A stretch of 64,000 bases of DNA from an uncultured Candidatus Binatia bacterium (GCA_965242525.1 OZ251459.1:3712001-3776000); one strand, 5' to 3'. Counted from the first letter of the stretch, positions 38,358 to 58,516 are shown. Translations and numbers: made by a program. Notes: generated by a model not told the origin, from the sequence alone.

Positions 38358-38458
38358 TGAAGCCCGTCCTTACGAGATTCGTTGAACAAGACAGCGGCCA
38401 AGCTCGTAGCTCGGCGTCCAGGGAGGGATCGTCCCAACCGGGTGGTTGGTGGTGGCCA

Positions 38459-40024
38459 TTATTGCAGTTCCCTCCAGAGGCCGATTCGCTCCTCCAGCCC
38501 TCGGACCAGGTCGCCAACCTGGTATCCCATGGTCTCCGCCTCTTGCCGGCCAACGATCCTGGCCAAGTCCGCGACGCTCCTGTTCAGGCGACGGGCAAGT
38601 TCGCTCACCATCCGTTTTGCAGGCGCTCCCTTCTCCAAACTACGCGCCATCAACTGCTCGATAGCCCGCATCTGCTCTTCGATGTCGCCGGCGGACATAC
38701 CCAAGGAGGTTTCGTAGGCGTCAGGCCGGCGTTCCAGCACCTCCCAGACCCACTGCTCGGGTGGCCCATCGCTTGGCAGAAACAGCGGGCGGAAACCGTG
38801 ACCGTAGCGTTCGGCTATGCTTCTCAATTCCTCCTCCCGGTCCCTCGAATCGCCATCCAACACGAAAATGAAGCTCGAGAGGCCACGGAACTTGCCGAGC
38901 GCCCGGATGTGCGCCGGAAACTCGTCCCTGCCCGTGTTCCGGCCAATCAGGAAGTCGTCCGGGCGTAGTTGCAGCCGCGGCTGCAGGACATCGAGCACGC
39001 CAAGGAGGACTCCCTCCGCCACTTCGTCCTCGCAAAGGATGGAGAGTTGCTCGCGGGATTGACCGTACAGGGCCTTCTGGAAGATGTCCCGATGCGGTGG
39101 CAGCATCTGGACATCCAACGTCCGTTCGTCTCGATCCAGGAACAGCCTGCCTTCCGGAGGCACACTGTCGAGCACCACCGGACTGTGCGACGCCACGATG
39201 ATCTGCAATCTCTGGCGCAAGGCCAACCGCTGAAGCTCCAGCATGAGCTGCTGTTGCGTATAGGGGTGCAGGCCGGTCTCTATCTCGTCGATCAACACGA
39301 GCGCGTCTTCAAGGCCGGAGACGTCCCTGGAAATGCGCAATACCGTGCGTTCGCCGGAAGACATGTGGAACTCCGAATAGCGGGCATCCTCGTTGTCCTT
39401 TGCCTCCGCAAACAGAATGTCCCGCCCTTCGGCGCTGATGACGGACACTTGCCGGTAGCGCTGGGGCAAGATACTGTCGGAGAGCCGGAGCAGGTCCGGC
39501 GTTATGGTCGATGAAAGGTAGTTCTTGCGCATGAGCTGAAGCACGCCTCGCGTATCCGCAGGATTCGTGAGGTTGGGCAGCGTCCGCAGATAGACCTGTC
39601 GCGTGGGCTGCTTCGCCCCCCTGCGTCCCATGAAGCCCCGACTCCACGTTTTGCGCCGCCGCCACGTCATGGAAGTCCGCTCGCCGCCATCCACGTAGAA
39701 GTAGGCGAACTCAGCCTCCTCGATGCGATCCGACAGGGCGCCTCGCAGCCGATCGGTGAAGGCCGGAAACAGGCTGGCCGGCCGGAGCGCCGAGGACGCG
39801 ACGCCAAGCGGCTGGTACGCGCATGCGCAGGCGAGCAGCACCGTGGTCTTGCCGCAGCCATTGCCTCCCGCCAAAACCGATACGGGATAACGCAAAACCA
39901 CCCGCAGATCCTTGACGCCGCGGAAGTTCCTGACCCGAACCTCTTCCAGGCTGAAGTCACGTTGCGGATTCGTTGCCCGCAACACATTCCAAACGGTAGC
40001 CAGCTCTGCGCCAATCAACGACAT
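38459..40024 (-). CDS. ABC ATPase fused to TOPRIM (OLD-like ATP-dependent nuclease)
   Basis: GGNGCGKT, MSSGE, LIDEIETGLHP and ASHS, then LCED and LDGD TOPRIM acidic motifs. Confidence 0.8.
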   Translation of the reverse strand: MSLIGAELATVWNVLRATNPQRDFSLEEVRVRNFRGVKDLRVVLRYPVSVLAGGNGCGKTTVLLACACAYQPLGVASSALRPASLFPAFTDRLRGALSDRIEEAEFAYFYVDGGERTSMTWRRRKTWSRGFMGRRGAKQPTRQVYLRTLPNLTNPADTRGVLQLMRKNYLSSTITPDLLRLSDSILPQRYRQVSVISAEGRDILFAEAKDNEDARYSEFHMSSGERTVLRISRDVSGLEDALVLIDEIETGLHPYTQQQLMLELQRLALRQRLQIIVASHSPVVLDSVPPEGRLFLDRDERTLDVQMLPPHRDIFQKALYGQSREQLSILCEDEVAEGVLLGVLDVLQPRLQLRPDDFLIGRNTGRDEFPAHIRALGKFRGLSSFIFVLDGDSRDREEELRSIAERYGHGFRPLFLPSDGPPEQWVWEVLERRPDAYETSLGMSAGDIEEQMRAIEQLMARSLEKGAPAKRMVSELARRLNRSVADLARIVGRQEAETMGYQVGDLVRGLEERIGLWRELQ

Positions 40025-40062
40025 GTCGGTTCCCAAAGGCACACTTCGGTGGTTGTTGGTCC

Positions 40063-43000
40063 TCAAGCGGTTGCGCTTGGCTGTTCGAGCAGGGTCCCCT
40101 GCTCGCCGCGCTCTTCGCGTGCGAGGCGGGCGATCTCCGGCCAGCTCTGGACGAGCGCGTTGTAGGACGAGGCTTCCGCGGCGCGGCTCCGGCGCTCGGC
40201 GACAGCGTAGAGGCGGTAGGCGAGCTCGCGGGCGGTCTCGGCGACCCCGCCGAGTTTGCGGACGAGTCCCGCGGCCGCGGTCTCGCCCCCGGTTTCGAGG
40301 GCGCGAACGAGTTGATGGACCGTTTCCCAAGCGGTCAGCCTCGGGTCCGCGGCCGGGTCCCAATCCGCGGAAAGCTCCTCGGGCTCCAGCAACCGGACCT
40401 TGCCCGCCTTCGATGCGAGGACGCCGGCCTCCACCAGTCCGCCGACGCTGGTGTTCTTGGCCTTGGAGAGCGTCTCCGCGGCGCCGTACTCGCCCGCTTC
40501 GAATCCGTGCTGCTCGAACCACGCCAGCGCCCAACGGCTGTCGGCGTCGAAGTCGCCCTCCTGCTCCGCAAGGGTTTCGTCCAGGGTCTGGTTGATGAGC
40601 GCCAGCGCCTCCCGGACCGACACCGACTTGCCGGAGGCGTCCAGCACCCTGGCGTAGCGGGTATAGACCGCCATGCCGGGGCCGATGGCCGCCTGCGCCA
40701 GATCCACCGGCGCGATGTTGCCGGATTGCAGGTGGGCGAGGGCAGCGGGAAGCTCGGCTTTGAGCGCCGCCACGAACTCCCGGCGGGTGGCGAGGGAGGC
40801 GTCGGCCGGGCGTTTGCGGCAGACGAGGACGATGGAGGATGCGAGGGCGTTGGCGCCCATCCCGATCATGCGATTGCCGAGCTCAGTACGCATCGGCCAG
40901 GTACCGGTAACGGCGAAACCGGCACGGATCACGGCGTCGAGGAAGGTCTCCCATCCATTGCTGACCCCTGGGAGCGCGGGCGTCCCGCCCGCATTCGTCC
41001 TGCGGATACTCTCCGATTGCTTGAACGCATAGTAGATCGTGACCGGAAAGGAGGGATATGTCTGTTCGGCGAGGCGCTGCATGGCCCGCGTCATCCCGTC
41101 AAGAAAGAAGGTTTCGGCCTCGTCCTTGCCCCCGTGCCGGTAAGGAGTAGCGACCAGTTCCTCCGCCTTCGGGACGGCGAGCGTGGCGAAGAGATCGGGG
41201 AACGTCGAGCGTAATGACCGGCGCAGCCAGACGTAGAAGAAGTCGGACAGATCCGCGTAGCCGACGTTGTCGTAGTAGGGCGGGTCAGTTGATACCAACT
41301 TCCAAGTCGACAAATCTTGTTGAGCAGTAGCATCGAGCTGACAGGATCGCCCGAGTGTTCCACTTCGAAATTGTTTTTCTACGACTTCATAGACGGACTT
41401 CGTAGTTCCGAAGACATCGCCTCCGGCTCCGGCAAGAGGATTGGTCTCTGCGAAATCCCATACCATCGGCAGCGCTTGGCGACTGAATGTACCGACAAGC
41501 TTGTCTCGTTGTTCCCACCGACACAGGCCGGTGTTTCGGTCACACGCCTTGCTCTGCGCGAAGGCCAGATACACTCCCACCGCCTCGGCATACGCTGTTG
41601 CGCTCGTGCCACCGTCACGCAGGGGGAGATCGTCCCCTGGGAGCGCGGGCGTCCCGCCCGCATTTTCCTTGAGCGGGCGGGACGCCCGCGCTCCCAGGAT
41701 GTCCTGCTTGATCCGCGCGATTGCTTCCGTCACCAAGTCGGAGAAGGTGGTCAACGCGACCAGTTGGCGGGGGGTGAAGAGGTCCCCCCAGATCGTCAGG
41801 CCGTAGGGCACGCAGGTTCCGCCGGTGAGCCTCGCCGGAACGTCGCCGTCCGGCCGCCACTCCGGCTCCGCCTCCCGGGCGCGCTCCTCATGCTCCGACG
41901 TGGGCGCCAGATAGACGCGCCCGTGATCTCCCTCCGCGACGATGGCCATCAACCGGGCGCCCATGCGGCCAGCCTTCCCTTCGGCCTTGATGTAGTCACC
42001 GGCGACCGGCATGTCGGACATCAGGCAGCGGAAATTCGCGCCGCGGCCCAGCTTGGTTCCTTGTGTGGGCGGGAAGCCCGCGTCCTCCCGGGACACGCCG
42101 TTCCCGGAATGCATGGATTCCCGCTTACGCGGGAATGACGAGGATGGGGTCGGGATGTCCGCGCTACCAGGAGCGCCGGCCTTTGGTGCGCCGGTTCCAG
42201 GAGGACCTACCTTCACCGTGAAGCGGTAGCCGTCCTCCCCGACTACCGGCTCGACATACGCCTCCTTGCCCTTCTTCGTCGAGAGCATGAAGGTCGAGGC
42301 CAGCGGTACGTCCACGTCCCGGAACGCCGGGTTCGGGCTCTTGACCGTGCGTGCCCACAGCCACGCGATGACGGTCAGCTTCCGGCCCACGTACCGTTCC
42401 AGGTCCGGCCGCTCCCGCGCCATCGCCGCGGTGACCTCGACCTTCGGATACAGATGCCCGATGCGCTTTTCGGCCTCGTCGCGCATCCATCGACCGTAGT
42501 AGCGCACGTCCTCGGCCAGCCCTTGCGCGCCCTTCCAATCCTCCCGCTCAATCAGCGACTCCTTGGCGGCCGGTGCGTCGGGGCGGGCCTCGGGGTTCAC
42601 CGGCGGGCGGCCGGCGAACTTCGGCGGGATCTCGATCATCGCCTTGTTGATGAGCACCGCCACCGGGTTCAAGTCCGAGGCATGGGCTTCCAGCCCCAGG
42701 CGCTGCGCTTCCAGCGGCAGCGCGCCGCCGCCCGCGAACGGATCGTGGAAGGCCGGCAGCCGGTCGGGGTCGAACAGTTCGTCCGCCCGCGGATGGTCGC
42801 GATTCTCCGCGCAGGTCCGCCGCCAGCTTGTCCGGATCTCGTCGCGGGCGGCCTGCAACAGCGCCTCGTTCGTGGTGTTCTCCCACTTCACCAGTTCCTC
42901 GATGAGGCGGAACAGCCGCCGCCGTTCCTTCTCCTGGGCTTCCTCCGTGGGGAACCGGTCCGGCGACGCGGAGGGGTCGTCCACCATCTGCGCGAAGATC

Positions 43001-43158
43001 ACCGCCCGCGCCGCGGCCAACGGGCGCCGCGCCCACCACAGATGCAGCGTGCTCGGATGCCCGTGCCGGATGGACTTCTCCCGCGCGGAAGCCGCATTGA
43101 CGGCGTCGAGTGGCAGCGCCACTTCGATGAGCTTCTTCCGTTCGTGTGATCGGATCAT
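40063..43158 (-). CDS. DUF1156 adenine-specific DNA methyltransferase
   Basis: [17 protein letters not shown] (SAM binding) and TDPPYYDN (catalytic) motifs. Confidence 0.92.
41637..41698. repeat. Intragenic REP doublet (26-bp inverted repeat) in frame within the methylase
   Basis: cctgggagcgcgggcgtcccgcccgc-N~11-gcgggcgggacgcccgcgctcccagg; encodes [21 protein letters not shown]. Confidence 0.85.
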
Positions 43159-43269
43159 CAAATTCAGTACCAGTGCAGTCGATGACACATACTGAATACC
43201 GAGATCATACAAGCATTGACCAGAAGTTCCGATATTAAACTGCGGCCTCATGTACCGATCATTCTTCGG

Positions 43270-44448
43270 TCACCCGTCTGGAAGCGCATCTGCCGCATCG
43301 TAACCTTCTTTGGTTACTTTGAATACTTCACCTTTGTGTCCGGCATCCTTGATGTACCGCCGCCGTCGCAGCTCTTCAAGACCCTCTTCCCAACGAGCGA
43401 GTGTTCGTGGTTTCTCATCCTGATTCATTACTTTTCCATTCACTTGAATCCAGGTACCTCCAAGAGTACCCATTAAAAAGATAAAGCCATCAGCCTTCAC
43501 AGCTTCTCGCAAGATGGCCTTAGCTTCTTCCGAGAGTCCAGAGGCTGTCGATGGTATTTCGTGTGCCTCGGTAATGCTGGTTGTTCCCCCTTTCCAATCG
43601 ACGTTTCCCAGTGCAACCGGCAATGCTCGAAGGATTTCTCTGAGTGCCTGGAGCCGAGTATTCGGTGTTTTCCAGACATAGGGCTTCAAGAGTTCGGGAA
43701 CCCCTACCGTTCCACCTCCGGAATTCTCAAACAACAATGTGACGATGACAAATTTATCTCCCTTTTTACGCTTTTCCTGGATAGCGTAAGTTATCTCCGT
43801 CTCCAGATAACCTTCATCCTTGAAGAATGGAGTAATAAAAAACACCACGGCGCATGAATCTTGCATGCCCTGAAGAATTGCACGTTCAACCGGTGAACCG
43901 GCAGGCATTGCTTCTTCATCAAGCCAAGGCTCGTAGCCTAATGCCTCCAGTGTATCCTTGAAATCAATGACCATGTCCTTGTCTGAACCTTTATGGCTCA
44001 AGAATATCTTCTTCGAGTCACTGGTAGCCATGTCAGTCTCTCCTCCGCAGATGATGCAGTAGTACCTGTCCCTTTGATCTGCCTTGATGGTTTCTCCACA
44101 GCATCGAAAGTGCAGAACTTTCAAATGATCATCTGTGTCCACCGGGGATACTATGGGATCAGGGATGTTGGAAGCCACCTCAACACGGAAAAATTCATTT
44201 GATGTGCTCTTGAGTTGCCGTTGGAATTTTTCCAATTCAGGGCGAACGACAACATCGGTTACGGCTGACTGGATGTAGTCTATCTGTTCTGGAGTCCACC
44301 AGCAATCGTGCTCATTGTGGCAACAGTAGGGACAAAACGAAATGGGTTTGTCGCTGCCGGAACCGAAAAGCACCTTGAAGCGTTGTCGGCATGAGGGGCA
44401 CTCCTGTGACAGGAAACCGTCGGAATCCGTATCGAATCTCACTTCCAC
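43270..44448 (-). CDS. TIR-domain protein with N-terminal Cys-rich region
   Basis: KIFLSHKGSDK, EPWLDE and YLETEI; CPSC/CPYC/CIIC motifs; visibly AT-richer than its flanks. Confidence 0.82.
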   Translation of the reverse strand: MEVRFDTDSDGFLSQECPSCRQRFKVLFGSGSDKPISFCPYCCHNEHDCWWTPEQIDYIQSAVTDVVVRPELEKFQRQLKSTSNEFFRVEVASNIPDPIVSPVDTDDHLKVLHFRCCGETIKADQRDRYYCIICGGETDMATSDSKKIFLSHKGSDKDMVIDFKDTLEALGYEPWLDEEAMPAGSPVERAILQGMQDSCAVVFFITPFFKDEGYLETEITYAIQEKRKKGDKFVIVTLLFENSGGGTVGVPELLKPYVWKTPNTRLQALREILRALPVALGNVDWKGGTTSITEAHEIPSTASGLSEEAKAILREAVKADGFIFLMGTLGGTWIQVNGKVMNQDEKPRTLARWEEGLEELRRRRYIKDAGHKGEVFKVTKEGYDAADALPDG

Positions 44449-44692: not shown

Positions 44693-45904
44693 TCATGCCT
44701 GCGCCCTCACCGTGCAATGGACCCTGTTCGGCTCGACCTGGAACTCAGGCTCCGGTTGGCCGTTGGCCAGCAACTCCCGCCGTGCGGCGGGGATGCCGAA
44801 CCCGTATCGCTGCACCAGACCGAGCACGCGCATCGCCTCTGCAAGGATCGGGTTGCGGTAATCCACGACTCCGGGCTGGCCGAAGGCGCTCGTGGTCACG
44901 GCGCCGTAAGGGCCGCCGGGGCTGATGATCTCGATACGGTCGTCGAACCAGTACACCCGGACAGGGGCGTTCGTGCCCTCATAGGTCCGGTGCATGACCG
45001 CGTTGCGGACGAGTTGTTGCAGGGCGCCGAGGGGATAAGCGGAGCGGCGAGTTTCGACGGGGCCGGACGTGAAGTCCACCGCGGTGCGGTTGTGGGCGAT
45101 GAGCTTGTCGTCCAGCCGGCGGATCACGTCGGCCACCGGCCCGTCACATCGGGCTTCGTCAACCACCTCTCCGCCCCATTCGTTTCCGCCGATCCGAAGG
45201 AACTGGATATAGGCGCCCTGCAGGTGCTCCTGCGGGCGCTTGCCCAGGACGAGGACCCCTGCCACAGTAGGAATCGGGTCCTCGCCCGAGACGATCATCT
45301 TGGCCGCGGCCAACCGCTCCTCGGGCGTCCGGTCGTTTGCGGCCAGGGTCTCGGGGTCGATGGCGGCCGGCAGATATTCGTCCTTGAAGAGGCCCACTCT
45401 CAGATCCGCAAGGCCGGCAGTGTAAACCGGCCGCGCGTCGAAATGCGGGTCGTGGTGCCTGCGCTTCTCGTTCAGTATCCTCTCGTCCTGCGCACTCGCA
45501 ACGGCGCGGCGCGGTCCCACGCGGATCCAGGTCCGTCCCCGGTAGCGAACCGGCGGAGAGTCCGAGGGCAGGACGGTGACGACCGCAACGTCATGCCCGA
45601 AAAGATGGTGCTTGCCAACGGTCAAGGACGGCGGCGGCACGATGTTTCCATCGGTCTTGACGTCGGCAAGCTGCCGCAACAGTTCATCCGTGACCTCGAT
45701 ACCGCTGGGCCTGCCGCCGTCGTCCGCTCCCACGAAGACGACGCCCGGACGCCGGTGGTCCGGCAGGTCGTTGGCGAAAGCGCAGACCGCTTCCCGGACC
45801 CTCGCCGGGGAGTCGCCCTGCAACGACTCCTTTCGTTCGACCCGATCGGATTCGAGGTCCGCCATCATGGCTTCGAGTTCATCATCCGAATAGGCGTCCG
45901 TCAT
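44693..45904 (-). CDS. Schlafen/AlbA_2 plus HATPase_c_4 protein (paralogue of 24023-25207)
   Basis: ESDRVERKES, CAFANDLP, PPVRYRGRTWIRVGP, NAVMHRTY and DRIEIISPGG motifs. Confidence 0.85.
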   Translation of the reverse strand: MTDAYSDDELEAMMADLESDRVERKESLQGDSPARVREAVCAFANDLPDHRRPGVVFVGADDGGRPSGIEVTDELLRQLADVKTDGNIVPPPSLTVGKHHLFGHDVAVVTVLPSDSPPVRYRGRTWIRVGPRRAVASAQDERILNEKRRHHDPHFDARPVYTAGLADLRVGLFKDEYLPAAIDPETLAANDRTPEERLAAAKMIVSGEDPIPTVAGVLVLGKRPQEHLQGAYIQFLRIGGNEWGGEVVDEARCDGPVADVIRRLDDKLIAHNRTAVDFTSGPVETRRSAYPLGALQQLVRNAVMHRTYEGTNAPVRVYWFDDRIEIISPGGPYGAVTTSAFGQPGVVDYRNPILAEAMRVLGLVQRYGFGIPAARRELLANGQPEPEFQVEPNRVHCTVRAQA

Positions 45905-46031
45905 CGCGGTTACCCCCGCTTGTGCATGCCTCTTATCGGCGTTCCTCATGAAGCGGCTCGGCTATCGTTCGTCTGCCCACCGCAGCCGCAGTTTCAGGGC
46001 GTTCAGACGATTCCACGGCAGAAGCTCCTTA

Positions 46032-46814
46032 TTACTGCTTCCTCACATACCGGGACCACTCATTGATATCCACCTTGTCATCCGAAAACAGGCCGCGCAT
46101 GTCCTTGGCCTGGGGCAAAGGCCCACGTCCCAAGGGAGAGAACGAATCGACCTTGATCGACGTAGGTTCTCCCCGAACGTTGAACCTCACTTCGCCGCTC
46201 ACCGACAGGCGGCAGCCCAGATATTCGATCACCTGGTCCAGCGTCTCCCGGTCGCACCTGCACTGGATCCGGCGATCGGTGATGGCATCGTAAATGGCGA
46301 ACTGTACTCCGCCGTGTATGGAGAGAGCTTCCAGGGCGCCTTCTACGGAACCGATGGCAATCGACGTCGTCCCCATGAGCTGGTCCACGTGCACGACAAG
46401 GCGACTCGTAAGGGGTACTCGTTGCGCCGGTGTCGATCCTTCGCCTCCGAAGACGGCAATGGAGCCCGTATCGGGGGCAACGGAAACTGCGAGAGCCTTC
46501 GCCCGCTTGAGGGCGTCGTCCGTAAAGTGATCCGGGCGGCTTGGCTCCTTTTCGATCTTGCTGAGTCCGGAGAGAGCAGTGGCGATAATCCTGTCTGCAC
46601 AATCGGGTCCATATCGAGGTTCCGGATCCGGTCTTACGGCCAGACTGGCGCTGCCCATTCGCAAGTCCGATATAAACCAGTGAAGGTCCCGTGCGCCGGA
46701 TACGGCGAACTCCAGTTCGGACAACAGACCGGACAGCTCCCCGGCGGCACTGATAAAAACCTCGAGCGGGATATCGTCTCCCGTGAGATTCAATCCGATG
46801 TTCCGATTATCCAT
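46032..46814 (-). CDS. Hypothetical protein, possible C-terminal OB-like domain
   Basis: Normal globular composition, co-oriented, directly downstream of a promoter-like sequence. Confidence 0.65.
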   Translation of the reverse strand: MDNRNIGLNLTGDDIPLEVFISAAGELSGLLSELEFAVSGARDLHWFISDLRMGSASLAVRPDPEPRYGPDCADRIIATALSGLSKIEKEPSRPDHFTDDALKRAKALAVSVAPDTGSIAVFGGEGSTPAQRVPLTSRLVVHVDQLMGTTSIAIGSVEGALEALSIHGGVQFAIYDAITDRRIQCRCDRETLDQVIEYLGCRLSVSGEVRFNVRGEPTSIKVDSFSPLGRGPLPQAKDMRGLFSDDKVDINEWSRYVRKQ

Positions 46815-46879
46815 TGGTGCGGCCGCTCCAATACGGCGTGACCGGTGGAAATGACTTCGCGCCGACCCCGTTGGCTCCC

Positions 46880-46908
46880 ATTATACACCCGTCGTCCTTG
46901 CCCGTCGA
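46880..46908 (-). promoter_or_regulatory. Sigma70-like promoter TCGACG-N17-TATAAT
   Basis: Perfect -10 and 17-bp spacer; conserved in the second copy at 51138-51166. Confidence 0.65.
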
Positions 46909-46950
46909 GTCTGGCTTCAGCCGAAGAAATGGCCAGGTTTCCCGGTTCCC

Positions 46951-47030
46951 TCACCTCGGCGCATCCCTTCACGCCAGCATCTCGTGCAGCTCGTAGTTCA
47001 CGCTCACCACCCCGAAGTTCGGCTCACCGT
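46951..47030 (-). pseudogene. Remnant 3' tail of a second helicase-DUF3883 allele
   Basis: Translates EPNFGVVSVNYELHEMLA*RDAPR*, compared with the helicase end EPDFGAVSVNYKLDDLLARGEEPG*. Confidence 0.8.
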
Positions 47031-47048
47031 GCGAATAGGCGTCCGTCG

Positions 47049-48758
47049 TCATGCGAAGTCCGACCTCCACAAGTGCACCGCTCGTCCCGCAAGCCTGCGC
47101 TGGCGTTCGTCCATCAACTCCGGCGTCCATCGTTCGGGCGCCATCTCCGGGATCCGCCGGGTGAGGGCATAGGCGCTATTGCCATAGGCGTCGAGCTTGT
47201 CGGCATAGGGGCCGTTCCCCACGTTGCGGTTGGCGGCGGGTTCCAGGAGAGTGAGGTTGCCGAGCCGATAAACGGATGCTTCCCATCGTTCGGCGGGGAG
47301 AGCCTCTCTCCATGCCTCCGCTGGATTCTCCGGGAGGATATGCTCGATGCTGCCGGGGTCGGTCTCCGGATCGCAGGCATGGCCCGCGGCGTCTTGTTCG
47401 AGCCGCGCGAGGATATACTTCGCGAGCTTTTTCCTCTGGCCGCGGGTGTTGACCACAAGCAGGGCGAAGTTCTGCCGTGTCCTTTCGTCGTCCACGTAGA
47501 TCGGCTTGAGATGCTCGAACACGGCGGCCGGAGTGCGAGCATCGCCGTCCATGACCGCTTTCGCGGCACGGTGGTAAGCCGGTTCGAGGGCGTTGGTGTT
47601 GAGGCCGCTGACCACCGTGTAGCGGAACGAGATCACGCTGACGAGTTTCAACACGCGGACGAAGTCGTTTCCGTCCAGGGACTCCCAAGCGGCGAACAGC
47701 AGCGGCATGGCCTGCCGCACCCGGAACAGGTTGAGGTCGCGGATGTATTCCTTCGCATCGGGCAAGTCCATCCAGTAACCGTGGTTCGGGTCCGAGACCG
47801 CGGCGAACAACTCGGCGCGGCCTTCGAGATCGTCAAGGAGCTGGAACACATCGGCCGCCGTCCTCGTCCGGTCCCGCACCAGCTTGAACAGACGCTGGCT
47901 CCGAACCTTCGGCTGCTCGCAAAGCAGGTGGTAGCGAAGGAACTCCGGGAAACGCTCCTGGTCCACCGTGGCCATGAGCGACCGCCAGCGGCGATGGAGG
48001 GCTTCGAGATCGGTAGGAACGCTGATCCGGGAGAACAGGTAGTTCTTGAGCAAGTCGGTAGTCGTCAACTCCAGGCCGCGCGCATTGAGCGTCTCGAAGA
48101 CGGTATAGGCGTTCAGCTCGTCTTCCACCGTGATCAGGATGAAGAGAAGCTGACGGGCCACCGTCTCGGAGAGAAGGCCGGCCACGGCCTGACCGTCGTC
48201 GCGCAATTCATCCAGGGTGTCGAGTTGCTTGCCAAAGTAACGGAAACAATCCCGGAGGAGGCGGTTCGACTTCGGCAACCCCCTCGGGTTGCGCGGCTCC
48301 CTGAGTTGGACCAGGTAGTCCTGGTAGAAGGCGTTGTCCGTTTCGTTCAGGTAGAGGCGGCTGCTTTCGATGAGCGACGCCGGGTCTTTCTCCCCAACGA
48401 AGCGGTTGCGGAGCTCCTGTCCCCGTTCCCTGTTCGCGTCGGACTCGATTCCGCGTTCGGCCAAGGCCCACAGCCTGGCGATCACCGCGAGCGCGAGAAG
48501 GCTGAGCGTGGCGAGACGCTGCTGGCCGTCGATGACGAGGAACTCGCGGTCGTTCTTCCCTTCGACGACGAGGGCGCCCAGGTAATGGCGGTCTTCCGGG
48601 CGCGGCCTCAGATCGACGAGGTCGTTCCAGAGGTCCTCCCACTGTTCCTCCGACCAGGAGTAGTCGCGCTGGTACGGAGGGACCCGATACGACCTGCCGT
48701 TGCCGATCAACTCCAGGTAGTTGATCGTGCGAGTATCCAGGATGTTCGTTCCTGCCAC
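47049..48758 (-). CDS. DUF262-DUF1524 protein (GmrSD-like modification-dependent restriction nuclease)
   Basis: VPPYQRDYSW, IDGQQRL and FETLNARG; HNH-like IEHILPE...LGNLTLL. Confidence 0.9.
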   Translation of the reverse strand: MAGTNILDTRTINYLELIGNGRSYRVPPYQRDYSWSEEQWEDLWNDLVDLRPRPEDRHYLGALVVEGKNDREFLVIDGQQRLATLSLLALAVIARLWALAERGIESDANRERGQELRNRFVGEKDPASLIESSRLYLNETDNAFYQDYLVQLREPRNPRGLPKSNRLLRDCFRYFGKQLDTLDELRDDGQAVAGLLSETVARQLLFILITVEDELNAYTVFETLNARGLELTTTDLLKNYLFSRISVPTDLEALHRRWRSLMATVDQERFPEFLRYHLLCEQPKVRSQRLFKLVRDRTRTAADVFQLLDDLEGRAELFAAVSDPNHGYWMDLPDAKEYIRDLNLFRVRQAMPLLFAAWESLDGNDFVRVLKLVSVISFRYTVVSGLNTNALEPAYHRAAKAVMDGDARTPAAVFEHLKPIYVDDERTRQNFALLVVNTRGQRKKLAKYILARLEQDAAGHACDPETDPGSIEHILPENPAEAWREALPAERWEASVYRLGNLTLLEPAANRNVGNGPYADKLDAYGNSAYALTRRIPEMAPERWTPELMDERQRRLAGRAVHLWRSDFA

Positions 48759-48882
48759 CGGGAGTATCCCTTCCGATCCTTCACGCGGACCTCAATCGCT
48801 GCCGTTCCTCCAACACCACCCCCGGGGAGACGGCAGAGTCGGGCGCGTATCGATTGGTCACCTTCGCCACGTTCCGTCCGTA

Positions 48883-49353
48883 TCAACCATCATCCAGCGC
48901 GTCTTTCAGTGTTCCACCGCACCGCACCAGCGCGACTCGTCTCGTTTGTCCGCGCAGGCGGACTTTGCGGGAGCGGAATTCGTTTCGCTGCCTGATCCGA
49001 AGATCCCTCCCGTGAGCGAGAACCGGGACGAACTGGAACGCGCTGTCGTCCGGAAGCCATGCCTCCACGGTTTCAGCCCCACCCTGCAGTTGGTCGACGA
49101 CCTCCGCTGCATCGAAACGCCCGCTTTTCAACTCGATCGGAGCGACCCAGGCTTTGGTATTCTTCTCACCGACGAAAACGTAATCGCACCGCTTCCGGTC
49201 ATCCGGAATATGCAGATCGTGACAATCGAGATCGACCAGTACCCTCTTCACCCTGGCTATACTGACGGAAAGCGTACATCCTTCCTTACTGCAAGAGTTG
49301 AAACGGCACCGGTCGGGAACGGTGTCGGAGACGACCGCAACGAGGCCCTTCAT
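48883..49353 (-). CDS. Small putative PD-(D/E)xK nuclease
   Basis: RCDYVF...IELKSG...DQL pattern; ATGA overlap with the upstream ATPase. Confidence 0.65.
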   Translation of the reverse strand: MKGLVAVVSDTVPDRCRFNSCSKEGCTLSVSIARVKRVLVDLDCHDLHIPDDRKRCDYVFVGEKNTKAWVAPIELKSGRFDAAEVVDQLQGGAETVEAWLPDDSAFQFVPVLAHGRDLRIRQRNEFRSRKVRLRGQTRRVALVRCGGTLKDALDDG

Positions 49354-50906
49354 CCGCGGGTGCTTTCTTGCGCACGGTTGAAAATGGCGGCGCTTGCGTT
49401 GTACAGCGCCTCGCTCACGACGCCGTAATCGGTGGGATACATGCCGGTTTCCGGATTGAACGGCACTTCCTCCACGACCGACCCCTTCGGTCGCTTCGTA
49501 GGCTTGAACAGCCACGCGCCGACCTCGTCCGGGCTGAGCGCGACGTCGGCCCCTGTAATTCCCGCCTGCCGGTTCGCGGGCAAGGAAGAAAGTCCGACGA
49601 GGTTGCCGATCTGTTCGAGAAACCACTCGCTGTGCGTCGTCATGACGATACGCACGCCGGCACGAACCAGCCTCGCCAGTTCGAGCGCAAACGCCGCCTG
49701 CATGGCAGGGTGCAGGTGAGCTTCCGGCTCCTCGATGATGAGCAACTCACCAGGCCGGACCACGTACCGCAGATACAGCACGACCGGCGCGAGTTCCGAC
49801 ACCATGGACGAAGCCCGCATCAGCGGCAGGTCGTCCTTCCAGCCCTCGGGGCGATAGGCGAACGTCGGGTAGCCGGTCTCCGAACGCTCCAGACGAACCC
49901 TTCCCTGGAGGATGTTCTTTTCCAGAAACGCCTCGAGCTTGGGCGCCGGTTTCCCGAAAGGACGCCTTGCAACGGGCCTTCCCGGTGCGCTCATTTCAAT
50001 CAGTTGGCTCAGAAAATCCCCCAACACGCCGGACAGCATCGGGACGTCACGAGAAGGGCGGAGTCCTGCGGTCGTGGCGTTCTGGACCAACGTGCTCACG
50101 ACCACCTGATGACTGTGCATGACACCGGTGCGGTCGGCTGGCAGGTAGTACGCGTTTCGGGAGACCGGGCCAAGCAGGGAAGCGAATATGGGCCTCGGTA
50201 AAAACCTCAAGAGGGAGTCCAACTCTTCGTCATCGTCTTCTTCTTCTGTTTGAAACATCCCGAGCTCCATCACATGCGTCACATTTTCGGGCGAAATTCC
50301 GGACGTCAACGAGATTGTCCTGGGAACTTCGCTGGACAAGTGAATTTCTTTCTGGCCGAATTCGAGTTGATATCGAACCTGCCCGGCGTCGGTTTCCTGT
50401 GGAAGATGCATCCTGACGCTTGTACGGGGATGAGTGTCCACACGCCGCACCAACTCACCAAGACGATCGACACCGAAACATCGACATATCTCCTGCTCCA
50501 GACTGCCCTCAAGACCCTTGTACCGTTCCAGCATTTCCCGGATAGATACGGCAAGGTTTTCAGGGAATGTCGGAAGCACGGCGTTTTCCGACACTTTCGA
50601 AAGCCAATCCTTCAGGTTTCTCCGCATTGAAGGAGTGATCGGGCGAACGGGTTCGAACGGCGGCAAACGGATAGAACCACGGAGTAGGCGGTATCCTCGG
50701 CGGTCATAAGGAAAACTATTCTGCCCGCCGAAACACTGGTGCAGGGCGTAGATCAGAATCGCCAAATAGGATTTGCCGGTGTTGCTCGGGCCGATGAACA
50801 CCGTGAGCGGCCGCAGGTCCACGCTGGCTTTGGCGATCGGCCCGAAATTGGTCACGTCGAGGCGATAATCGCCGACTATTTGCGACTCAGGGGCGGACGT
50901 GTTCAT
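49350..50906 (-). CDS. ABC-type ATPase (AAA_15/AAA_21)
   Basis: NFGPI, IGPSNTGKSY, LPADR, ASSMVSE, IIEEPEAHLHP and TTHS motifs. Confidence 0.88.
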   Translation of the reverse strand: MNTSAPESQIVGDYRLDVTNFGPIAKASVDLRPLTVFIGPSNTGKSYLAILIYALHQCFGGQNSFPYDRRGYRLLRGSIRLPPFEPVRPITPSMRRNLKDWLSKVSENAVLPTFPENLAVSIREMLERYKGLEGSLEQEICRCFGVDRLGELVRRVDTHPRTSVRMHLPQETDAGQVRYQLEFGQKEIHLSSEVPRTISLTSGISPENVTHVMELGMFQTEEEDDDEELDSLLRFLPRPIFASLLGPVSRNAYYLPADRTGVMHSHQVVVSTLVQNATTAGLRPSRDVPMLSGVLGDFLSQLIEMSAPGRPVARRPFGKPAPKLEAFLEKNILQGRVRLERSETGYPTFAYRPEGWKDDLPLMRASSMVSELAPVVLYLRYVVRPGELLIIEEPEAHLHPAMQAAFALELARLVRAGVRIVMTTHSEWFLEQIGNLVGLSSLPANRQAGITGADVALSPDEVGAWLFKPTKRPKGSVVEEVPFNPETGMYPTDYGVVSEALYNASAAIFNRAQESTRG

Positions 50907-51137
50907 GTTCGTCTCCCGTATCAACCGTCTGCCGGGAACTGCACGCTGTCTTCAACATCCTCTCGAACCCCAGGCCGGCCGCGGTTTCGCAGAACCGGAT
51001 CTCTTCTTCATCTGCGGTCTGGATGGCGGTCCATTCCTCTTGCAGGAAAGTATCCTCGATACCGCGAACTACGAGCCGCCGAAACGCAGGTTCGCATCCG
51101 ATCGAGCGGCGCCTTCGCGCCGACCCCGTTGGCTCCC

Positions 51138-51166
51138 AGTATACAACCGTCGTCTTTGCCCGTCGA
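51138..51166 (-). promoter_or_regulatory. Sigma70-like promoter TCGACG-N17-TATACT just after the helicase stop
   Basis: Second copy of the unit at 46880-46908. Confidence 0.6.
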
Positions 51167-51208
51167 CCCTGGCTTCGGCCGGGCAAGCGGCCAGGTTTCC
51201 CGGAGCCG

Positions 51209-54200
51209 TCACCCCGGCTCCTCCCCTCGCGCCAGCAGATCGTCCAGCTTGTAGTTGACGCTCACCGCCCCGAAGTCCGGCTCCCGCTCGAAGGGCTCGC
51301 GCACGTAGCGCACCCGGGGTTCCCCTTCGTCCGGGAACACGACGATGGCCAGGATGAAGTCCTCCGGTTTGTTCAGGGCGGTGAGGATCTCGTTCTTGGT
51401 CACCGTGACGCTGTCTGCGTCCGCAACGCGCCCCTTCACCTCGATGAAGCGCAGCCGGCCGGTTCCGGGGACGCGGCTCTCGATGTCGTAGCCGAGCTTT
51501 TCGGTCTCGCGGTCCACCGGCTCGAACCCGAGCCGGCGCTCGACCTCCATCACCACGGCGCGCGCCCGGGCTGCGGACGCCTGGGTGTCCGCTACCCGCG
51601 GCGTTGCCGGGCCTCCTCCGGTCATGGCGGCGACCAGCCCCATGGGCGCGACCACGAGGCCGCCGATGACCACCGGCGGCAACGCCGAAATCCGCGCTTC
51701 GCCGTCGAGTCGGGCCATGCGCCGTTCCAGGCGTTCCTGCAGGTCGTCCGCACGCCGGCGCGCCTCGCCGGAGTTGAGCCGCGCCCCCGCCTTGCCGGCC
51801 TGCTCCTGGAGCTTGAGCTGGTCGGCGCGGTGGTCCCAGTAGGCGATCTCCTTGGTCAGGCGTTCCTTGACCGCGGCCCGGGTCTTGTCGATCCACGCCA
51901 GGCGGCGGTCGCGGACCTCTGCGGCGTGCTCGGGCGCCACGTGGGCGATGGCCTCGCGCCGCGCCGTCTCCTCCAGCCCGGGGGCGATCCACGCGCACTC
52001 GGGCCGGTCGAGGACGTCGGCCGCGGCCGGTTCGCCTTCCGCGAGCGGGCGGTAGTCGAGGTACGGCGCGTGGCGGAGACGGTGCGCGTTTCCGGCGGCG
52101 TCGAGCTCCACGTACAGCATGCGCCGGGAGATCGTGCGGCCCTCGCCGTCCGGCAGGGGACTGGCGTCCCGGATGGCGTGCTCCAAGGTGAACAGCACGC
52201 GGGTGTCGAGTCCGGGGTCGCGTTCGTCCACCAGGACCGCGCCGCGCCGGAGGAGGCCGCGCCCGCGCTCCAGGGTGAGGTCCAGGACGGCGTCCAGGAG
52301 GGGATGCCCCGGGCAGAGGAAGGCGGCGGGGGGTTGCGTTCCCGCGGGAGGGGCGGTTTGGGTCTCCGCGGCGGAAGTTGCAAGCGGGCGGGACGCCCGC
52401 GTTCCCAGGGAGGACGGGGCGGAAGGCTCTTGGGGGCGGGGCGGCGGCGTTCCCGGGGAGGCCGGGCCGGAAGGCTCGCGGGAACGGGCCGCCCGCGTGT
52501 CCGGCGGGGCCAGCAGGGCCTTGTCGAAGACAATGCGCTCGTAGCGTTGCAACACCGGCTCGCCGGCGCCGTTCCGACGGTCCCGGTTGCGTACCGGGGC
52601 GGGGACGTGGGTGACCTCGTAGCGGCGCGGTTCGCGCTGGCGCACGGCGCCGCCGAGGCGGCGGAAGGCTTCGAGGAAGAACGACTCCACGTAGTGCGGC
52701 TGCAACCGGCGGGCCTCGGCGCGTTCCATGTCTTCCCGCACGCGGGCCACGCGGGTCGAATCCATTGCGTCGTGGGCGAGGGCCCGCTCCTCGACCAGCG
52801 CTTGCAGGCGCGGGCGGTCCACCGCCTGGCTCACCGCGCGGGCGAGCCGCGCCCGCACATCGGGACGGTCGCCGTAGCGGACCGCCTCGACCAGCAGGTC
52901 GCGCAGGCGGCTGCCCTCGAACCGGAGCTTGCCGAGCACGTCGAAGACCTGGCCGCCGAGGGCGTGCCGGGCCTGCTCCAGCTTGTCCAGGAGTGTCCGG
53001 TACACGTCGCCCTCGCGGGTCTCCTCCGCCACCAGGTTCCACAGGTGGCAGACCTCGGTCTGGCCGATGCGGTGGATGCGTCCGAAACGCTGCTCCAGGC
53101 GGTTCGGGTTCCAGGGCAGGTCGTAGTTCACCATCAGGTGGGCGCGTTGCAGGTTGATGCCCTCGCCGGCCGCGTCGGTGGCGAGCAGGATACGGACTTG
53201 CGGGTCGTACAGGAACGCCTCCTGGGCCTTGCGGCGTTCTTCCCGGCCCGTGCCGCCGTGGATGACGGCGATGGCTTCGGGGCGGCCGAGGAGCGTCCCG
53301 ATCCGCCGTTGCAGGTAGTCGAGGGTGTCCCGGTGCTCGGTGAACAACACCAGCTTCTGGCCGGGCGAGGGAACCGGCGGCGGGATGGCGCCGCTGCCGT
53401 AGGGGGCGGGGTCTTCGGCCACGTGGCCGCCGGCGTCCAGCCCGGCCGGCGTGAAGACCTCCCCCAGCAGGCTCGACAGTTCCCGCCACTTGGCGTCGCC
53501 GCCGCTGCGGAGTACCTGCCCCGCAAGCGCTTCGAGGCGCTTGAGCGATGCGATCTCGGCGTCGAGCTCCGCGATGGTGCTTGCTGCGGTGGCCTGATCC
53601 AGCACCGCGGCCTCCGCGGCTTCGAGCTCGGCGCCGGGGGCCTCGTCGAGGTCCTCCACGTCCTCGGCTTCAAGCAGCGGCCCGCCGTCCGCAAGGGAAG
53701 GTGCGCCGGGACCCAGGGGGCGCACGTCCTCGGCGTCGAGAGGCGGACCGCCGCCCCTGAAGCCATGCGTCTCCGCGGCGCCGCGCCCTGCGCCGCGTTC
53801 GAGGAGCGCCAACTCCCGCAGTCGGCTTTCCAGCCGTTCGCGCCGCCTTCGCAACGACTGGTAGATGGCCTCCGGGGACGAGGCAAGGCGGCGTTGCAGG
53901 ATGGTGAGGGCAAAGCCGACGGCGCCGGCGCGCTTGTCGTTCTGCAGCGCCTCGGCACGGTTGAACTCGCCGCGCACGTAGTCGGTGACCTCCTCGTACA
54001 GGCGGGCCTCCGGGGCCGAAAGCCGGTAGGGCACGCTGTAGGCGATGCGCTCGGGAAAGAGCGGCCGGCCGTCGAACTTCCGCAGGTTCTCCTTCACCAT
54101 GCGGCGCATCAGGTCGGAGACGTCCACTTGGTGCACTCCGTCCCGGAAGCGGCCCTCGAAGCGGTCGCCGTCGAGCAGCGACATGAAGAGCTGGAAGTCC

Positions 54201-55030
54201 TCCTCCTTGCCGTTGTGCGGCGTCGCCGTCATCAGCAGGAAGTGGCGAGTGAGGCTCGACAGAAGCCGTCCCAGCCGGTACCGCTTGGTGTACTTGACCT
54301 CGCCGCCGAAGAAGGCGGCCGACAGCTTGTGCGCCTCGTCGCACACCACGAGGTCGTAACCGCAGTCCGGCGCCCTGAGCTTGGCCTGGATGTCCTCGCT
54401 TCGGGCCAGCTTGTCCAGCCGCGCGATGGCCAAGTCGTTTTCGAGGAACCAGTTGCCGGTGCGGGCGGCCTCCAGCTTGTCGTTGGTCAGGACCTCGAAG
54501 GGGAGTTGAAAGCGGCGGTACAGTTCGTCCTGCCATTGCTCGGCCAGGTTCCCGGGACACACCACCAGGCAGCGCTGCAAGTCTCCTCGGGCCATCAGCT
54601 CCTTGACGAGCAGCCCGGCCATGATGGTCTTGCCGGCGCCCGGGTCATCGGCCAGCAGGAAGCGGAGCGGCTGGCGCGGCAGCATGGCTTCGTAAACCGC
54701 GGTGATCTGGTGCGGCAGCGGCTCCACCAGCGACGTGTGGACCGCCAGCAGCGGATCGAACAGGTGCGCGAGGCGGATGCGCTGCGCCTCGGACACCAGA
54801 CGGAACATGGCCCCGTCTCCGTCGAAGCTCCACGCGCGCCCCTGCTCGACCACCTCGAGCCGCGCCTCGTCGTGACGGTAGAGCAACTCGTTCGCCACCT
54901 TGCCGCCCGGCGTCTCGTAGGTCAGCTCGATGGCCTCCGACCCGTACCACTGCACGCTGACCACGGTGACCGGACCGTCGGCAAGAACGCCGCGCAGAGT
55001 GGCCTGGGAACGAATGTCTTCCAGTTTCAT
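51209..55030 (-). CDS. SNF2-family helicase with C-terminal DUF3883 (PD-(D/E)xK) domain
   Basis: LLADDPGAGKT, DEAH, TATPH, GEGINLQ and LEQRFGRIHRIGQ; then GYDIES...FIEVKGR...TKNE. Confidence 0.93.
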   Translation of the reverse strand: MKLEDIRSQATLRGVLADGPVTVVSVQWYGSEAIELTYETPGGKVANELLYRHDEARLEVVEQGRAWSFDGDGAMFRLVSEAQRIRLAHLFDPLLAVHTSLVEPLPHQITAVYEAMLPRQPLRFLLADDPGAGKTIMAGLLVKELMARGDLQRCLVVCPGNLAEQWQDELYRRFQLPFEVLTNDKLEAARTGNWFLENDLAIARLDKLARSEDIQAKLRAPDCGYDLVVCDEAHKLSAAFFGGEVKYTKRYRLGRLLSSLTRHFLLMTATPHNGKEEDFQLFMSLLDGDRFEGRFRDGVHQVDVSDLMRRMVKENLRKFDGRPLFPERIAYSVPYRLSAPEARLYEEVTDYVRGEFNRAEALQNDKRAGAVGFALTILQRRLASSPEAIYQSLRRRRERLESRLRELALLERGAGRGAAETHGFRGGGPPLDAEDVRPLGPGAPSLADGGPLLEAEDVEDLDEAPGAELEAAEAAVLDQATAASTIAELDAEIASLKRLEALAGQVLRSGGDAKWRELSSLLGEVFTPAGLDAGGHVAEDPAPYGSGAIPPPVPSPGQKLVLFTEHRDTLDYLQRRIGTLLGRPEAIAVIHGGTGREERRKAQEAFLYDPQVRILLATDAAGEGINLQRAHLMVNYDLPWNPNRLEQRFGRIHRIGQTEVCHLWNLVAEETREGDVYRTLLDKLEQARHALGGQVFDVLGKLRFEGSRLRDLLVEAVRYGDRPDVRARLARAVSQAVDRPRLQALVEERALAHDAMDSTRVARVREDMERAEARRLQPHYVESFFLEAFRRLGGAVRQREPRRYEVTHVPAPVRNRDRRNGAGEPVLQRYERIVFDKALLAPPDTRAARSREPSGPASPGTPPPRPQEPSAPSSLGTRASRPLATSAAETQTAPPAGTQPPAAFLCPGHPLLDAVLDLTLERGRGLLRRGAVLVDERDPGLDTRVLFTLEHAIRDASPLPDGEGRTISRRMLYVELDAAGNAHRLRHAPYLDYRPLAEGEPAAADVLDRPECAWIAPGLEETARREAIAHVAPEHAAEVRDRRLAWIDKTRAAVKERLTKEIAYWDHRADQLKLQEQAGKAGARLNSGEARRRADDLQERLERRMARLDGEARISALPPVVIGGLVVAPMGLVAAMTGGGPATPRVADTQASAARARAVVMEVERRLGFEPVDRETEKLGYDIESRVPGTGRLRFIEVKGRVADADSVTVTKNEILTALNKPEDFILAIVVFPDEGEPRVRYVREPFEREPDFGAVSVNYKLDDLLARGEEPG

Positions 55031-55079
55031 GTTCTTCGGTCTCGCTTCCGGTGGGCGACCGATCCAATCATACCATTAC

Positions 55080-55464
55080 GGAACCCCTGAACAATCGGGA
55101 CAGGGGGCATGAGGCGTCCTTCGACTTCGCTACGCTACGCTCAGGACGAACGGGGACAGGAGTGTCGGCAAGCTCAACGACTCCGGGTATCCCTTCCAGG
55201 CAAGCGACTCTCCCGGGAACGCGGGCGTCTCGCCCGCACCGGCGGCATGCGCCGGTCTCCGGCAGCGCGCTCCCAAGATCTCCGCCGACGCCCACGCCCC
55301 TCGCCCTGCCCCGAGGTTTCATGTATGGAAACCCTGAACGATTACTCCCGTTCGTCCTGAGCATAGTGAAGACCCTCCGTTCGTCCTGAGCGTAGCGTAG
55401 CGAAGTCGAAGGACGCGCTTTCCACAGGCAGATGGGGTTCAAGCCGGAATTGTTCAGAGTTTCC
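55080..55464. repeat. Repeat cluster: partial MITE-A, GC-rich REP-like pair and MITE-B (55327-55464)
   Basis: TIRs and cores as elsewhere; gggaacgcgggcgtctcgcccgc resembles the intragenic REP. Confidence 0.8.
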
Positions 55465-55519
55465 GTAGCGCACTCGTCCGGACGATCATGCGCTCTCGAG
55501 CACCACAGGGAGGCACCCC

Positions 55520-57268: not shown

Positions 57269-57280
57269 GGAGCCGCGCCG

Positions 57281-58500: not shown

Positions 58501-58516
58501 CCTTGAAAACGCTGAA

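Follow-up and report, generated by a model that had tools for sequence, protein, structure and literature searches.

How does one defence system come to be embedded in another? Embedded defence systems are already known and have been used to find new ones. The question is raised by a window of 64,000 nucleotides (nt) from an uncultured Candidatus Binatia bacterium (GCA_965242525.1 OZ251459.1:3712001-3776000; the window is the whole stretch of DNA analysed, and positions are counted from its first letter), which carries an Hma system with the core genes hmaA (helicase), hmaB (methylase) and hmaC (ATPase). Two successive blocks of cargo genes stand between hmaA and hmaB, and each is headed by a copy of the last hmaA codons together with the non-coding DNA behind them. 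We found that this repeat is probably a recombination scar, composed of the end of a displaced helicase gene and the promoter-like DNA downstream of it, and that truncated copies of core-gene ends also bracket embedded DNA in eight other Hma loci.

Two copies of the hmaA end in one Hma locus

The locus is an Hma system with embedded cargo and an ordinary member of the published system type; its putative anti-phage role is assigned from the PADLOC match to Hma. The genome (G000) is 4.23 Mb in 7 contigs, the window being C1:3712001-3776000. All three core genes are co-oriented on the minus strand within 33254-55030, as are all other genes of the region. The C-terminal 399 amino acids (aa) of HmaA show 62-75% protein identity across many phyla. 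The core genes and the two copies of the repeat (units A and B) are as follows.

51209..55030, minus strand: hmaA, intact 1273-aa SNF2 helicase with C-terminal NOV_C (DUF3883); PADLOC HmaA PDLC00659, 1602.5 bits; Pfam Helicase_C, SNF2-rel_dom, ResIII and NOV_C (NOV_C E 2.2e-18)
51113..51283, minus strand: unit B, last 25 hmaA codons (51209-51283) plus 96 nt of non-coding DNA (51113-51208); promoter-like site 51166-51138
46855..47025, minus strand: unit A, dead hmaA tail remnant (46951-47025) plus 96 nt of non-coding DNA; promoter-like site 46908-46880
40063..43251, minus strand: hmaB, DUF1156 DNA methylase; PADLOC PDLC00660, 1500 bits; Pfam DUF1156, 2.8e-32
33254..36589, minus strand: hmaC, DUF499 ATPase with N-terminal HEPN_Swt1; PADLOC PDLC00662, 1110.9 bits; Pfam

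Read along the minus strand from hmaA to hmaB, the order is unit B, a spacer of ~200 nt, an ABC ATPase gene, its partner open reading frame (ORF) and a GmrSD-family gene (block 1), then 24 nt, unit A, a 40-nt spacer, the genes for a 260-aa protein (hyp260), a Schlafen-like protein and a TIR protein (block 2), and hmaB. A reading made earlier from the nucleotide sequence by itself (the sequence-only reading) had given this layout; Pfam and PADLOC confirmed its order, and its label of 'nuclease' for the partner ORF did not hold, as neither Pfam nor NCBIfam returned a family for this 247-aa ORF and PADLOC gave only a weak match to PDC-M47B.

Repeat search and MAFFT alignment of 46855-47025 with 51113-51283 gave direct, ungapped repeats of 171 nt with 85% identity, a spacing of 4258 nt and a longest identical run of 26 nt. 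When copy A was searched against the whole genome by blastn, only these two places were hit (E 6.9e-85 and 1.2e-49), the next match being 19 nt long, and a search for the 24-nt core of the element that tolerated up to 3 mismatches likewise found it at two places in G000. Unit A starts 24 nt past the GmrSD stop codon. Its tail translates as EPNFGVVSVNYELHEMLA-stop and that of unit B as EPDFGAVSVNYKLDDLLARGEEPG-stop; copy A has TGA at 46969-46971 where copy B has CGA, and no helicase ORF was found upstream of the copy A remnant, which matched a profile of HmaA tails with an E of 0.044. The non-coding parts contain TCGACG-N17-TATAAT in unit A (46908-46880, 10/12) and TCGACG-N17-TATACT in unit B (51166-51138, 9/12). 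The sequence-only reading had described diverged repeats of about 170 bp that hold the last ~25 helicase codons, the 47 kb copy dead by an internal stop, and ~95 bp of non-coding DNA with TCGACG-N17-TATA(A/C)T pointing into the downstream genes, and had taken helicase tail and promoter-like DNA as one unit heading two successive cargo blocks. All of this was borne out.

The tail and the non-coding part are equally diverged between the units (63/75, 84%, and 82/96, 85%). In a comparison with 88 other sampled hmaA tails, the closest allele to the unit A tail was unit B (49/57), followed by one at 45/54, with same-genus alleles at 37-40 of 51-54. With each unit being the other's closest allele, the helicases from which they come were close relatives with the same downstream region.

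The junction between GmrSD, remnant and block 2 was also found in a second species (G023), whose flanks are 90-96% identical to those of the window on both sides. The orthologous site of G023 consists of the flank, ~225 nt (including ~135 nt of unrelated filler), GmrSD, the same 24-nt spacer, the rest of the tail, the element and hyp260; past hyp260 follow parts of the Schlafen-like gene (partly replaced), a second hmaB and the other flank. Because the junction is common to both species at the orthologous site, it predates their split, to judge from these alignments, and is not an assembly chimera. GmrSD is 92.9% and hyp260 91.7% identical between the window and G023 (hyp260 codon positions 1/2/3: 93.8/94.2/86.9%). 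The remnant tail of G023 is largely deleted (9/26 aligned, 43 gaps) and its non-coding element is retained (83/102 identical; 26/29 from -35 to -10, with TATAGT as -10), which fits the decay expected of a dead stub. In the window the hyp260, Schlafen-like and TIR ORFs are all open, so that block 2 has been kept intact behind the remnant. hmaA, unit B, the ABC pair, HEC-04, HEC-01 and hmaC are all missing from the orthologous site of G023. This genome does have a complete 12-kb Hma (hmaA-hmaB-HEC-01-hmaC; L117), 72-85% identical to that of the window, ~9 kb further along the chromosome, just past the end of a common flank of ~7.5 kb; the corresponding position in the window (25238/25358) is empty.

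Contigs of two sequencing runs, one of them from another study, bridge unit A (X4 record 13, 46644-47148; X5 record 19, 46643-47068). None of the contigs listed from the four sequencing runs compared spans unit B into hmaA, and none of the 15 joints listed, of 376 in all, skips the ~4258 nt between the units, a result without bearing on excision, as contigs drop rare variants. With the shared junction and the bridging contigs, the duplication is not peculiar to this assembly, and on this point the sequence-only reading is supported. Taken alone, this locus gives a modest result, one old event inherited by two species.

Core-gene stubs in other Hma loci

Hma locus stretches were collected from other phyla (80 HmaA loci) and from genomes of the same genus, and 400 genomes of the phylum served as an independent sample. 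Stubs were sought by self-blastn of hmaA ends, a six-frame search with an HmaA-tail profile, tblastn with the three core proteins and a check at the nucleotide level. Truncated second copies of hmaA, hmaB or hmaC ends bracketing embedded DNA were present in 7 of 89 stretches, the window included. HmaA was found in 13 of the 400 genomes of the independent sample, and two of these 13 loci had stubs (L156 and L158). Repeated tails, whose recurrence the sequence-only reading had put up as a check, thus do recur, in one case with the same layout as in the window. The stubs outside the window are listed here.

L044: hmaA tail stub, 93 nt, 81%; intact hmaA, ~110 nt, then a ~30-codon remnant, with no gene between
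L040: hmaB tail stub, 143 nt, 92%; brackets Peptidase_M78 and DUF4411 genes
L081: hmaC tail stub, 169 nt, 97%
L070, L080 and L109: hmaB head stubs, 72-80%
L156: hmaA tail stub, 62 nt, 89%; brackets MqsR-MqsA-SecB
L158: hmaB head stub, 84% identical to the HmaB of the window (resident hmaB 42%)

The window and these eight loci share one geometry: an intact core-gene end, embedded DNA and a truncated copy of that end, all on the same strand. L156 repeats the layout of the window, with hmaA, a promoter-like site (11/12), MqsR-MqsA-SecB, the tail stub, a further promoter-like site (10/12) and an AlbA_2 gene. In L044 the stop codon of the remnant overlaps the start of the next gene, which is Schlafen-like; the downstream tail copy is coupled to this gene, and the intact hmaA upstream has a different end. 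In L040 a cargo ORF starts 4 nt before the stop codon of the intact hmaB. Both overlaps fit cargo that travels with a core-gene end. In L158 the stub and the resident gene differ so much in their identity to the HmaB of the window (84% and 42%) that the stub must come from a different allele.

As a control, we screened 1.39 Mb for direct repeats whose two copies are 80 nt or longer, share 70% identity or more and lie no more than 8 kb from each other. Of the 29 pairs obtained, 15 touch a core-gene end, although stretches within 200 nt of such an end make up only 10% of the bases.

Several candidates were dropped from the count of scars, namely L051 (whole-gene tandem hmaB), L119 (inverted hmaB), L101 (a second hmaA at the locus end), L112 (a distant SNF2 paralogue) and L072, L121 and L122 (split alignments of one gene). 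Two of these showed further features. L051 has two tandem hmaB genes directly 3' of hmaA (2875-9140; 80-83% over 1.2-1.5 kb). L119 (G011:C1:2253000-2272999) has two opposed hmaB genes of 954 and 1008 aa at 4226-12192, whose 5' parts are 1135-nt inverted repeats (99%) and whose remainders are 78-89% alike; the pair flanks two tandem tyrosine recombinase genes (Phage_integrase, 331 and 334 aa). This arrangement looks like a recombinase-driven methylase-specificity switch, comparable to phase-variable Type I restriction-modification (R-M) loci.

The cargo itself varies among relatives, as was already known from publication. The gap between hmaA and hmaB ranges from 0 to 8.5 kb in the 75 loci with hmaB downstream (up to 100 nt in 13 loci, 100-500 nt in 5, 0.5-2 kb in 30 and more than 2 kb in 27). 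Modules that are stacked in the window occur on their own after hmaA elsewhere, the ABC pair in L037, L038 and L106, GmrSD in L107 and L120, and Schlafen-like genes in many loci.

Origin of the duplicated unit

The reading that we favour, with a probability of roughly 0.65, is sequential displacement via homology-anchored recombination. In the older state, hmaA would have been followed by its own downstream region of ~100 nt (a weak hairpin, then a sigma70-like promoter), block 2 and hmaB. The incoming DNA would have brought different cargo, the ABC ATPase pair and GmrSD, on an hmaA allele that was a close relative of the resident one and shared its downstream region. One crossover, in or upstream of hmaA, would have been homologous, and the second join, ~20-30 codons before the resident stop codon, illegitimate. 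The resident helicase gene would have been replaced in this way, its last codons and intergenic DNA being stranded behind GmrSD with the promoter-like site facing block 2. The net effect would be a stack of defence modules, each older block lying behind the stub of a displaced core gene. We infer the order of these events, the one-ended character of the recombination and the homologous crossover from the arrangement of the locus. Presumably only short stubs last, since recombination between long direct repeats would remove the newly arrived cargo.

The edge of block 1 next to hmaA carries a further remnant, which bears on how the block was joined.

50962..51084, minus strand: relic of a Peptidase_M78/IrrE-domain gene, ~40 codons from the middle of a ~460-aa gene (blastn, ORF comparison; tblastn 54% over 59 aa)

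Intact copies of the parent gene lie elsewhere in G004, G001 and G006 (Pfam on the intact gene), and G000 has no intact parent, only a paralogue of 34-37%. Because the block edge carries a broken piece of a foreign peptidase gene, which a site-specific cassette mechanism would not leave, this left join is illegitimate and was made on imported DNA; on the sequences compared, the joins of block 1 are ILLEGITIMATE, illegitimate and not site-specific. The block boundaries also differ in kind, one being an hmaA remnant and the other the peptidase relic. No recombinase (Phage_integrase and the like) was found among 19 ORFs of at least 60 aa in 33254-62982 (11 of the locus and 8 flanking), and neither end of the block 1 insert has an integrase, the insert encoding only the ABC ATPase, its partner and GmrSD. 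We considered the peptidase gene as a normal partner of the ABC pair and rejected it; the gene was not found in L037, L038 or L106, nor was the ABC pair found beside the intact copies. A Peptidase_M78 and DUF4411 pair is also the cargo between the hmaB-tail repeats of L040.

Some observations weigh against sequential displacement. G023 lacks window positions 55281-48806 and has ~135 nt of filler in their place; its junction fits both an insertion from hmaA to the 247-aa ORF (nuc247) in the window lineage and a deletion in G023, and so does not give the direction of the change. The non-coding copies are 89% identical between unit B and the G023 copy (A'), 85% between A and B, and 81% between A and A'. 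Orthology of A and A' would not predict these values, which call for faster change in A or a more complex history; by arithmetic, B would be nearest the common node and A the fastest-changing of the three copies. Scars are a minority, present in 9 of 102 stretches, and the 15 core-end pairs of the repeat control comprise 7 true stubs, 6 repeat arrays near hmaA starts and 2 cases of whole-gene duplication. Many stretches are metagenome bins, in which strain mixtures can give false tandem copies; the window and G023 are exempt. For the promoter-like core (26/29 between the window and G023), conservation does not appear to exceed that at third positions of codons in the flanking genes (87.7% and 86.9%), a comparison with too few sites to decide, and constraint on the core is not demonstrated. 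Finally, insertion of a circle in the manner of Campbell would yield an identical final structure.

In such an insertion, a circle of unit, peptidase relic, ABC pair and GmrSD would enter by a single RecA-type crossover within the resident unit, and the block could later loop out and enter another Hma locus with a similar unit, as an integrase-free cassette. The direct repeats are of equal extent and flank exactly one block, tail and non-coding DNA are equally diverged as if from one event, A and B are mutually closest, no recombinase was found, and L040, L081 and L156 have a like flanked geometry, all of which agrees with this route. However, neither a circle nor an empty site was seen, and the ancestral order of hmaA, unit and hyp260 without block 1 was not found among the 60 relatives. 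About 26 nt of identity is near the minimum for efficient RecA recombination; with copies only 85% identical and a longest run of 26 nt, present-day excision should be rare. In L040 and L044, moreover, the repeats stop short of the gene end or differ there, which allele replacement fits better. We regard the circle as unlikely, though the least unlikely of the rival readings. Local tandem duplication of the hmaA 3' end and intergenic DNA, by slippage or unequal exchange, with block 1 inserted later, would explain why the tail copies of L044 are only ~110 nt apart with no gene between them and why A and B are closest relatives. It needs two independent events at one spot, however, and none of its intermediate states was found among the relatives searched; the coupling of the L044 copy to its next gene fits allele replacement, and the peptidase relic is imported DNA at the junction. 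This route seems quite improbable to us. A chimeric join of two strains or another assembly artefact is scarcely credible: two co-assembled alleles could look like copies of 85% identity, and X1 and X4 have contigs that terminate within unit B or at its edge, but the contig that holds the window measures at least 3.78 Mb, the junction is colinear at ~90% in another species assembled as a single 4.0-Mb contig (G023), and contigs of two runs bridge unit A.

The sequence-only reading had favoured a different mechanism, integron-like accretion of cassettes, in which helicase tail and promoter would form a dedicated site that captures and expresses cassettes. A unit does head each of two blocks with a promoter-like site pointing into it, Hma cargo varies, and only 3.1% of Hma-embedded genes are mobility-associated according to the available text of a survey preprint (bioRxiv 10.1101/2024.01.29.577857). 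A recurrent element would be expected, and the searches located the 96-nt element in two genomes only, G000 (2 copies) and G023 (1 copy). In blastn searches of the 60 relatives, G023 was the sole genome to match the non-coding part (89%). In seven same-genus genomes with hmaA homologues the match runs out near the stop codon, and conservation does not extend into the non-coding DNA behind their hmaA. A profile of the three non-coding copies had no match in the 80 HmaA loci of other phyla and, in the fetched genus stretches, retrieved G023's own copy only. An exact-pattern scan of metagenome contigs, whose degenerate 22-mer misses diverged copies, gave one contig with a 36-nt core match only. 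Plasmids gave two ~100-nt matches inside coding sequence, nothing relevant, and phages gave none. The units showed no fold signal against shuffles (z 0.02 and 0.93), and Rfam returned no relevant match at E up to 1 in 46500-51500, only two unrelated weak ones. Together with the irregular block edges and their gene relic, the lack of a recombinase and the occurrence of scars at several gene ends, this makes the integron-like platform very improbable.

The 36-nt match mentioned above (L126, 1458-1492; 94%) is to the 3' end of unit B and lies in a setting unrelated to Hma. It includes a small GC hairpin, CGGCGC-GAAG-GCGCCG, which straddles the repeat boundary at 51113.

Nor did the promoter-like sites behave as a general feature of hmaA. 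Four sigma70-like sites were found on both strands of 43000-55600 (12.6 kb; shuffles 1.5 +/- 1.4), two of them those of units A and B; the unit A site scores best of the four and the unit B site is level with the other two. In a survey of 61 loci whose hmaA-hmaB interval measures 300 nt or more, a site within 150 nt after the hmaA stop codon was present in 5, compared with 2.5 +/- 1.5 in mononucleotide shuffles (the consensus may not suit all phyla), 3/61 on the opposite strand and 3/244 coding windows. There is no enrichment, and a general hmaA-linked promoter is not supported; promoter activity of the non-coding part of the units is predicted from its motif. Of the proposal that the promoter is conserved while the cargo varies, the part on the promoter failed, the element having been found in two genomes only and the site in 5 of 61 loci.

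What the comparisons do support, through stubs at the ends of several core genes, is that such ends may act as recombination anchors for stacking defence blocks. The sequence-only reading had suggested this role for the helicase 3' end; that part of it finds comparative backing, and its dedicated site does not, while the mechanism itself goes beyond what the stubs show. A bolder version, which we hold to be doubtful, is that Hma core genes are portable homology arms, so that modules on core-gene ends could be captured by RecA-type recombination into any resident Hma locus. If it were true, newcomers would displace older modules inward, behind stubs perhaps equipped with promoters of their own, with occasional loop-out and reuse, and Hma, possibly along with BREX, DISARM and Type I R-M loci, would be recombinase-free cassette platforms of the pan-immune system.

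Cargo modules and comparison with known systems

The cargo genes of the window, from hmaA towards hmaC, are as follows.

49350..50906, minus strand: ABC-type ATPase (AAA_15/AAA_21), block 1 gene 1; PD-T4-4_A / PDC-M47A-like (Pfam, PADLOC)
48883..49626, minus strand: ABC partner, block 1 gene 2; 247-aa ORF, weak PADLOC PDC-M47B match (E 2e-6)
47049..48758, minus strand: GmrSD-family enzyme of HEC-06 type, block 1 gene 3; PADLOC HEC-06, 690.6 bits; Pfam GmrSD_N and GmrSD_C
46032..46814, minus strand: hyp260, block 2 gene 1; 260 aa, family-less, start 40 nt past unit A
44693..45949, minus strand: Schlafen AlbA_2 plus HATPase_c_4 protein, block 2 gene 2 (Pfam)
43270..44448, minus strand: TIR-domain protein, block 2 gene 3; Pfam TIR_2, PADLOC PDC-M14A on the N-terminal part
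36613..40534, minus strand: hmaB-hmaC cargo; HEC-04-like ATPase 38459-40534, HEC-01 ATPase 37182-38357, DUF4276 protein 36613-37221

Homologues of the ABC ATPase (42-43% identical) come after hmaA in L037, L038 and L106. The listed start of the partner ORF is probably too far upstream, because the ORFs that follow the ABC gene in these three loci have 155-161 aa and start at, or within ~15 nt of, the ABC stop codon. The HEC-04-like ORF probably also has its true start further in, since its profile match begins only at residue 196. hyp260 had no match in Pfam, PADLOC or NCBIfam, and its homologues (27-33%) were found in 3 of the 400 phylum genomes, none of them adjoining Hma genes. Schlafen-like homologues stand behind hmaA in many loci, in L046 with 68% identity and 5 nt after the stop codon. 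Schlafen AlbA_2, often with HATPase_c_4, is the most frequent gene directly 3' of hmaA (L044, L046, L062, L156, L158 and the window); in some loci stop and start codons overlap, and in L044 and L156 it is this gene that comes after the hmaA stub. Such a gene may rank as a semi-core partner of Hma. In HmaC (33254-36589), a Swt1-like HEPN domain (Pfam 2.2e-33) lies N-terminal to the DUF499 part.

Two families of short repeats were also observed. A repetitive extragenic palindrome (REP)-like element with the core GCGGGCGGGACGCCCGCGYTCCCAGG has 37 copies in G000 and 0 for the reversed control. Copies lie in frame inside hmaA (52367-52510, three 48-nt tandem units) and hmaB (40965-40995 and 41634-41698); these stretches are missing from relatives, where the alignments break, and are in-frame insertions in defence genes. 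The second family (~45-90 nt, core CGCTACGCTCAGGACGAACGGGG) occurs in both orientations on both sides of the Hma island (55080-55470, 57135-57270, 58187-58690, 61578-61675 and 33003-33046), and also in G023 near the same flanks.

Among known arrangements, integron arrays resemble the locus in having successive co-oriented cargo blocks behind a fixed platform gene and no mobility genes in the cassettes. They differ in that the window has no IntI-type recombinase, no structured site like attI or attC and no shared cassette boundary; integrons use one Pc promoter, whereas the window blocks each have a promoter-like site of their own. Genomic islands at gene 3' ends (attL/attR) are likewise flanked by repeats of a gene 3' end, the upstream copy completing the gene and the downstream copy being a stub. 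Here, in contrast, there is no integrase in or beside the insert, and in place of a short identical core stand long repeats that have diverged (171 nt, 85%). At rhs and cdiA loci, 3'-end stubs precede displaced orphan toxin/immunity modules and offer homology that a later exchange can use; a piece of the toxin delivery protein is encoded by the stub, and recombination re-arms the toxin. The Hma case differs, in that nothing suggests reuse of the stubs.

For Hma itself, the available text of Payne, Hughes, Fineran and Jackson (bioRxiv 10.1101/2024.01.29.577857) reports embedded genes in 931 of 1,485 systems, with 376 distinct cassettes and 96.7% of embedded genes co-oriented with the flanking system. 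The window agrees with their description in its three core genes with co-oriented defence cargo between them (here HEC-06; HEC-04 and HEC-01). It differs from the maximum of three embedded genes per hma pair allowed there, as six lie between hmaA and hmaB. In that text the origin of embedding is left open, with only the idea of a 'genomic sink'; the word 'recombination' has 0 occurrences, and duplicated core-gene ends around cargo are not mentioned. A full-text search on homology-facilitated illegitimate recombination in connection with defence or phages likewise turned up no description of such stubs among the papers that it listed. The stubs at cargo boundaries in the window and eight loci, from unrelated lineages, are physical traces of insertion events; they suggest homology-anchored recombination in preference to mobile-element machinery, and they make the origin of embedding testable in Hma, BREX, DISARM and Type I R-M loci.

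The closest parallel is with the T6SS (type VI secretion system) effector-immunity loci of Vibrio cholerae (Kirchberger et al. 2017, in PMC8189183), where, in the part of that source available, orphan immunity genes and truncated effectors are described as accumulating, and the build-up is ascribed to homologous and homology-facilitated illegitimate recombination. The Hma case is known from sequence alone. What is displaced also differs, since T6SS loci lose the effector and keep immunity genes, whereas in Hma a core helicase, methylase or ATPase gene would be displaced and whole defence modules kept. In both, old modules are kept downstream as orphans with the truncated remains of the displaced gene. 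As in an array built by sequential displacement, the window and eight other Hma loci have a truncated core-gene remnant, on the same strand, between the newer and the older modules.

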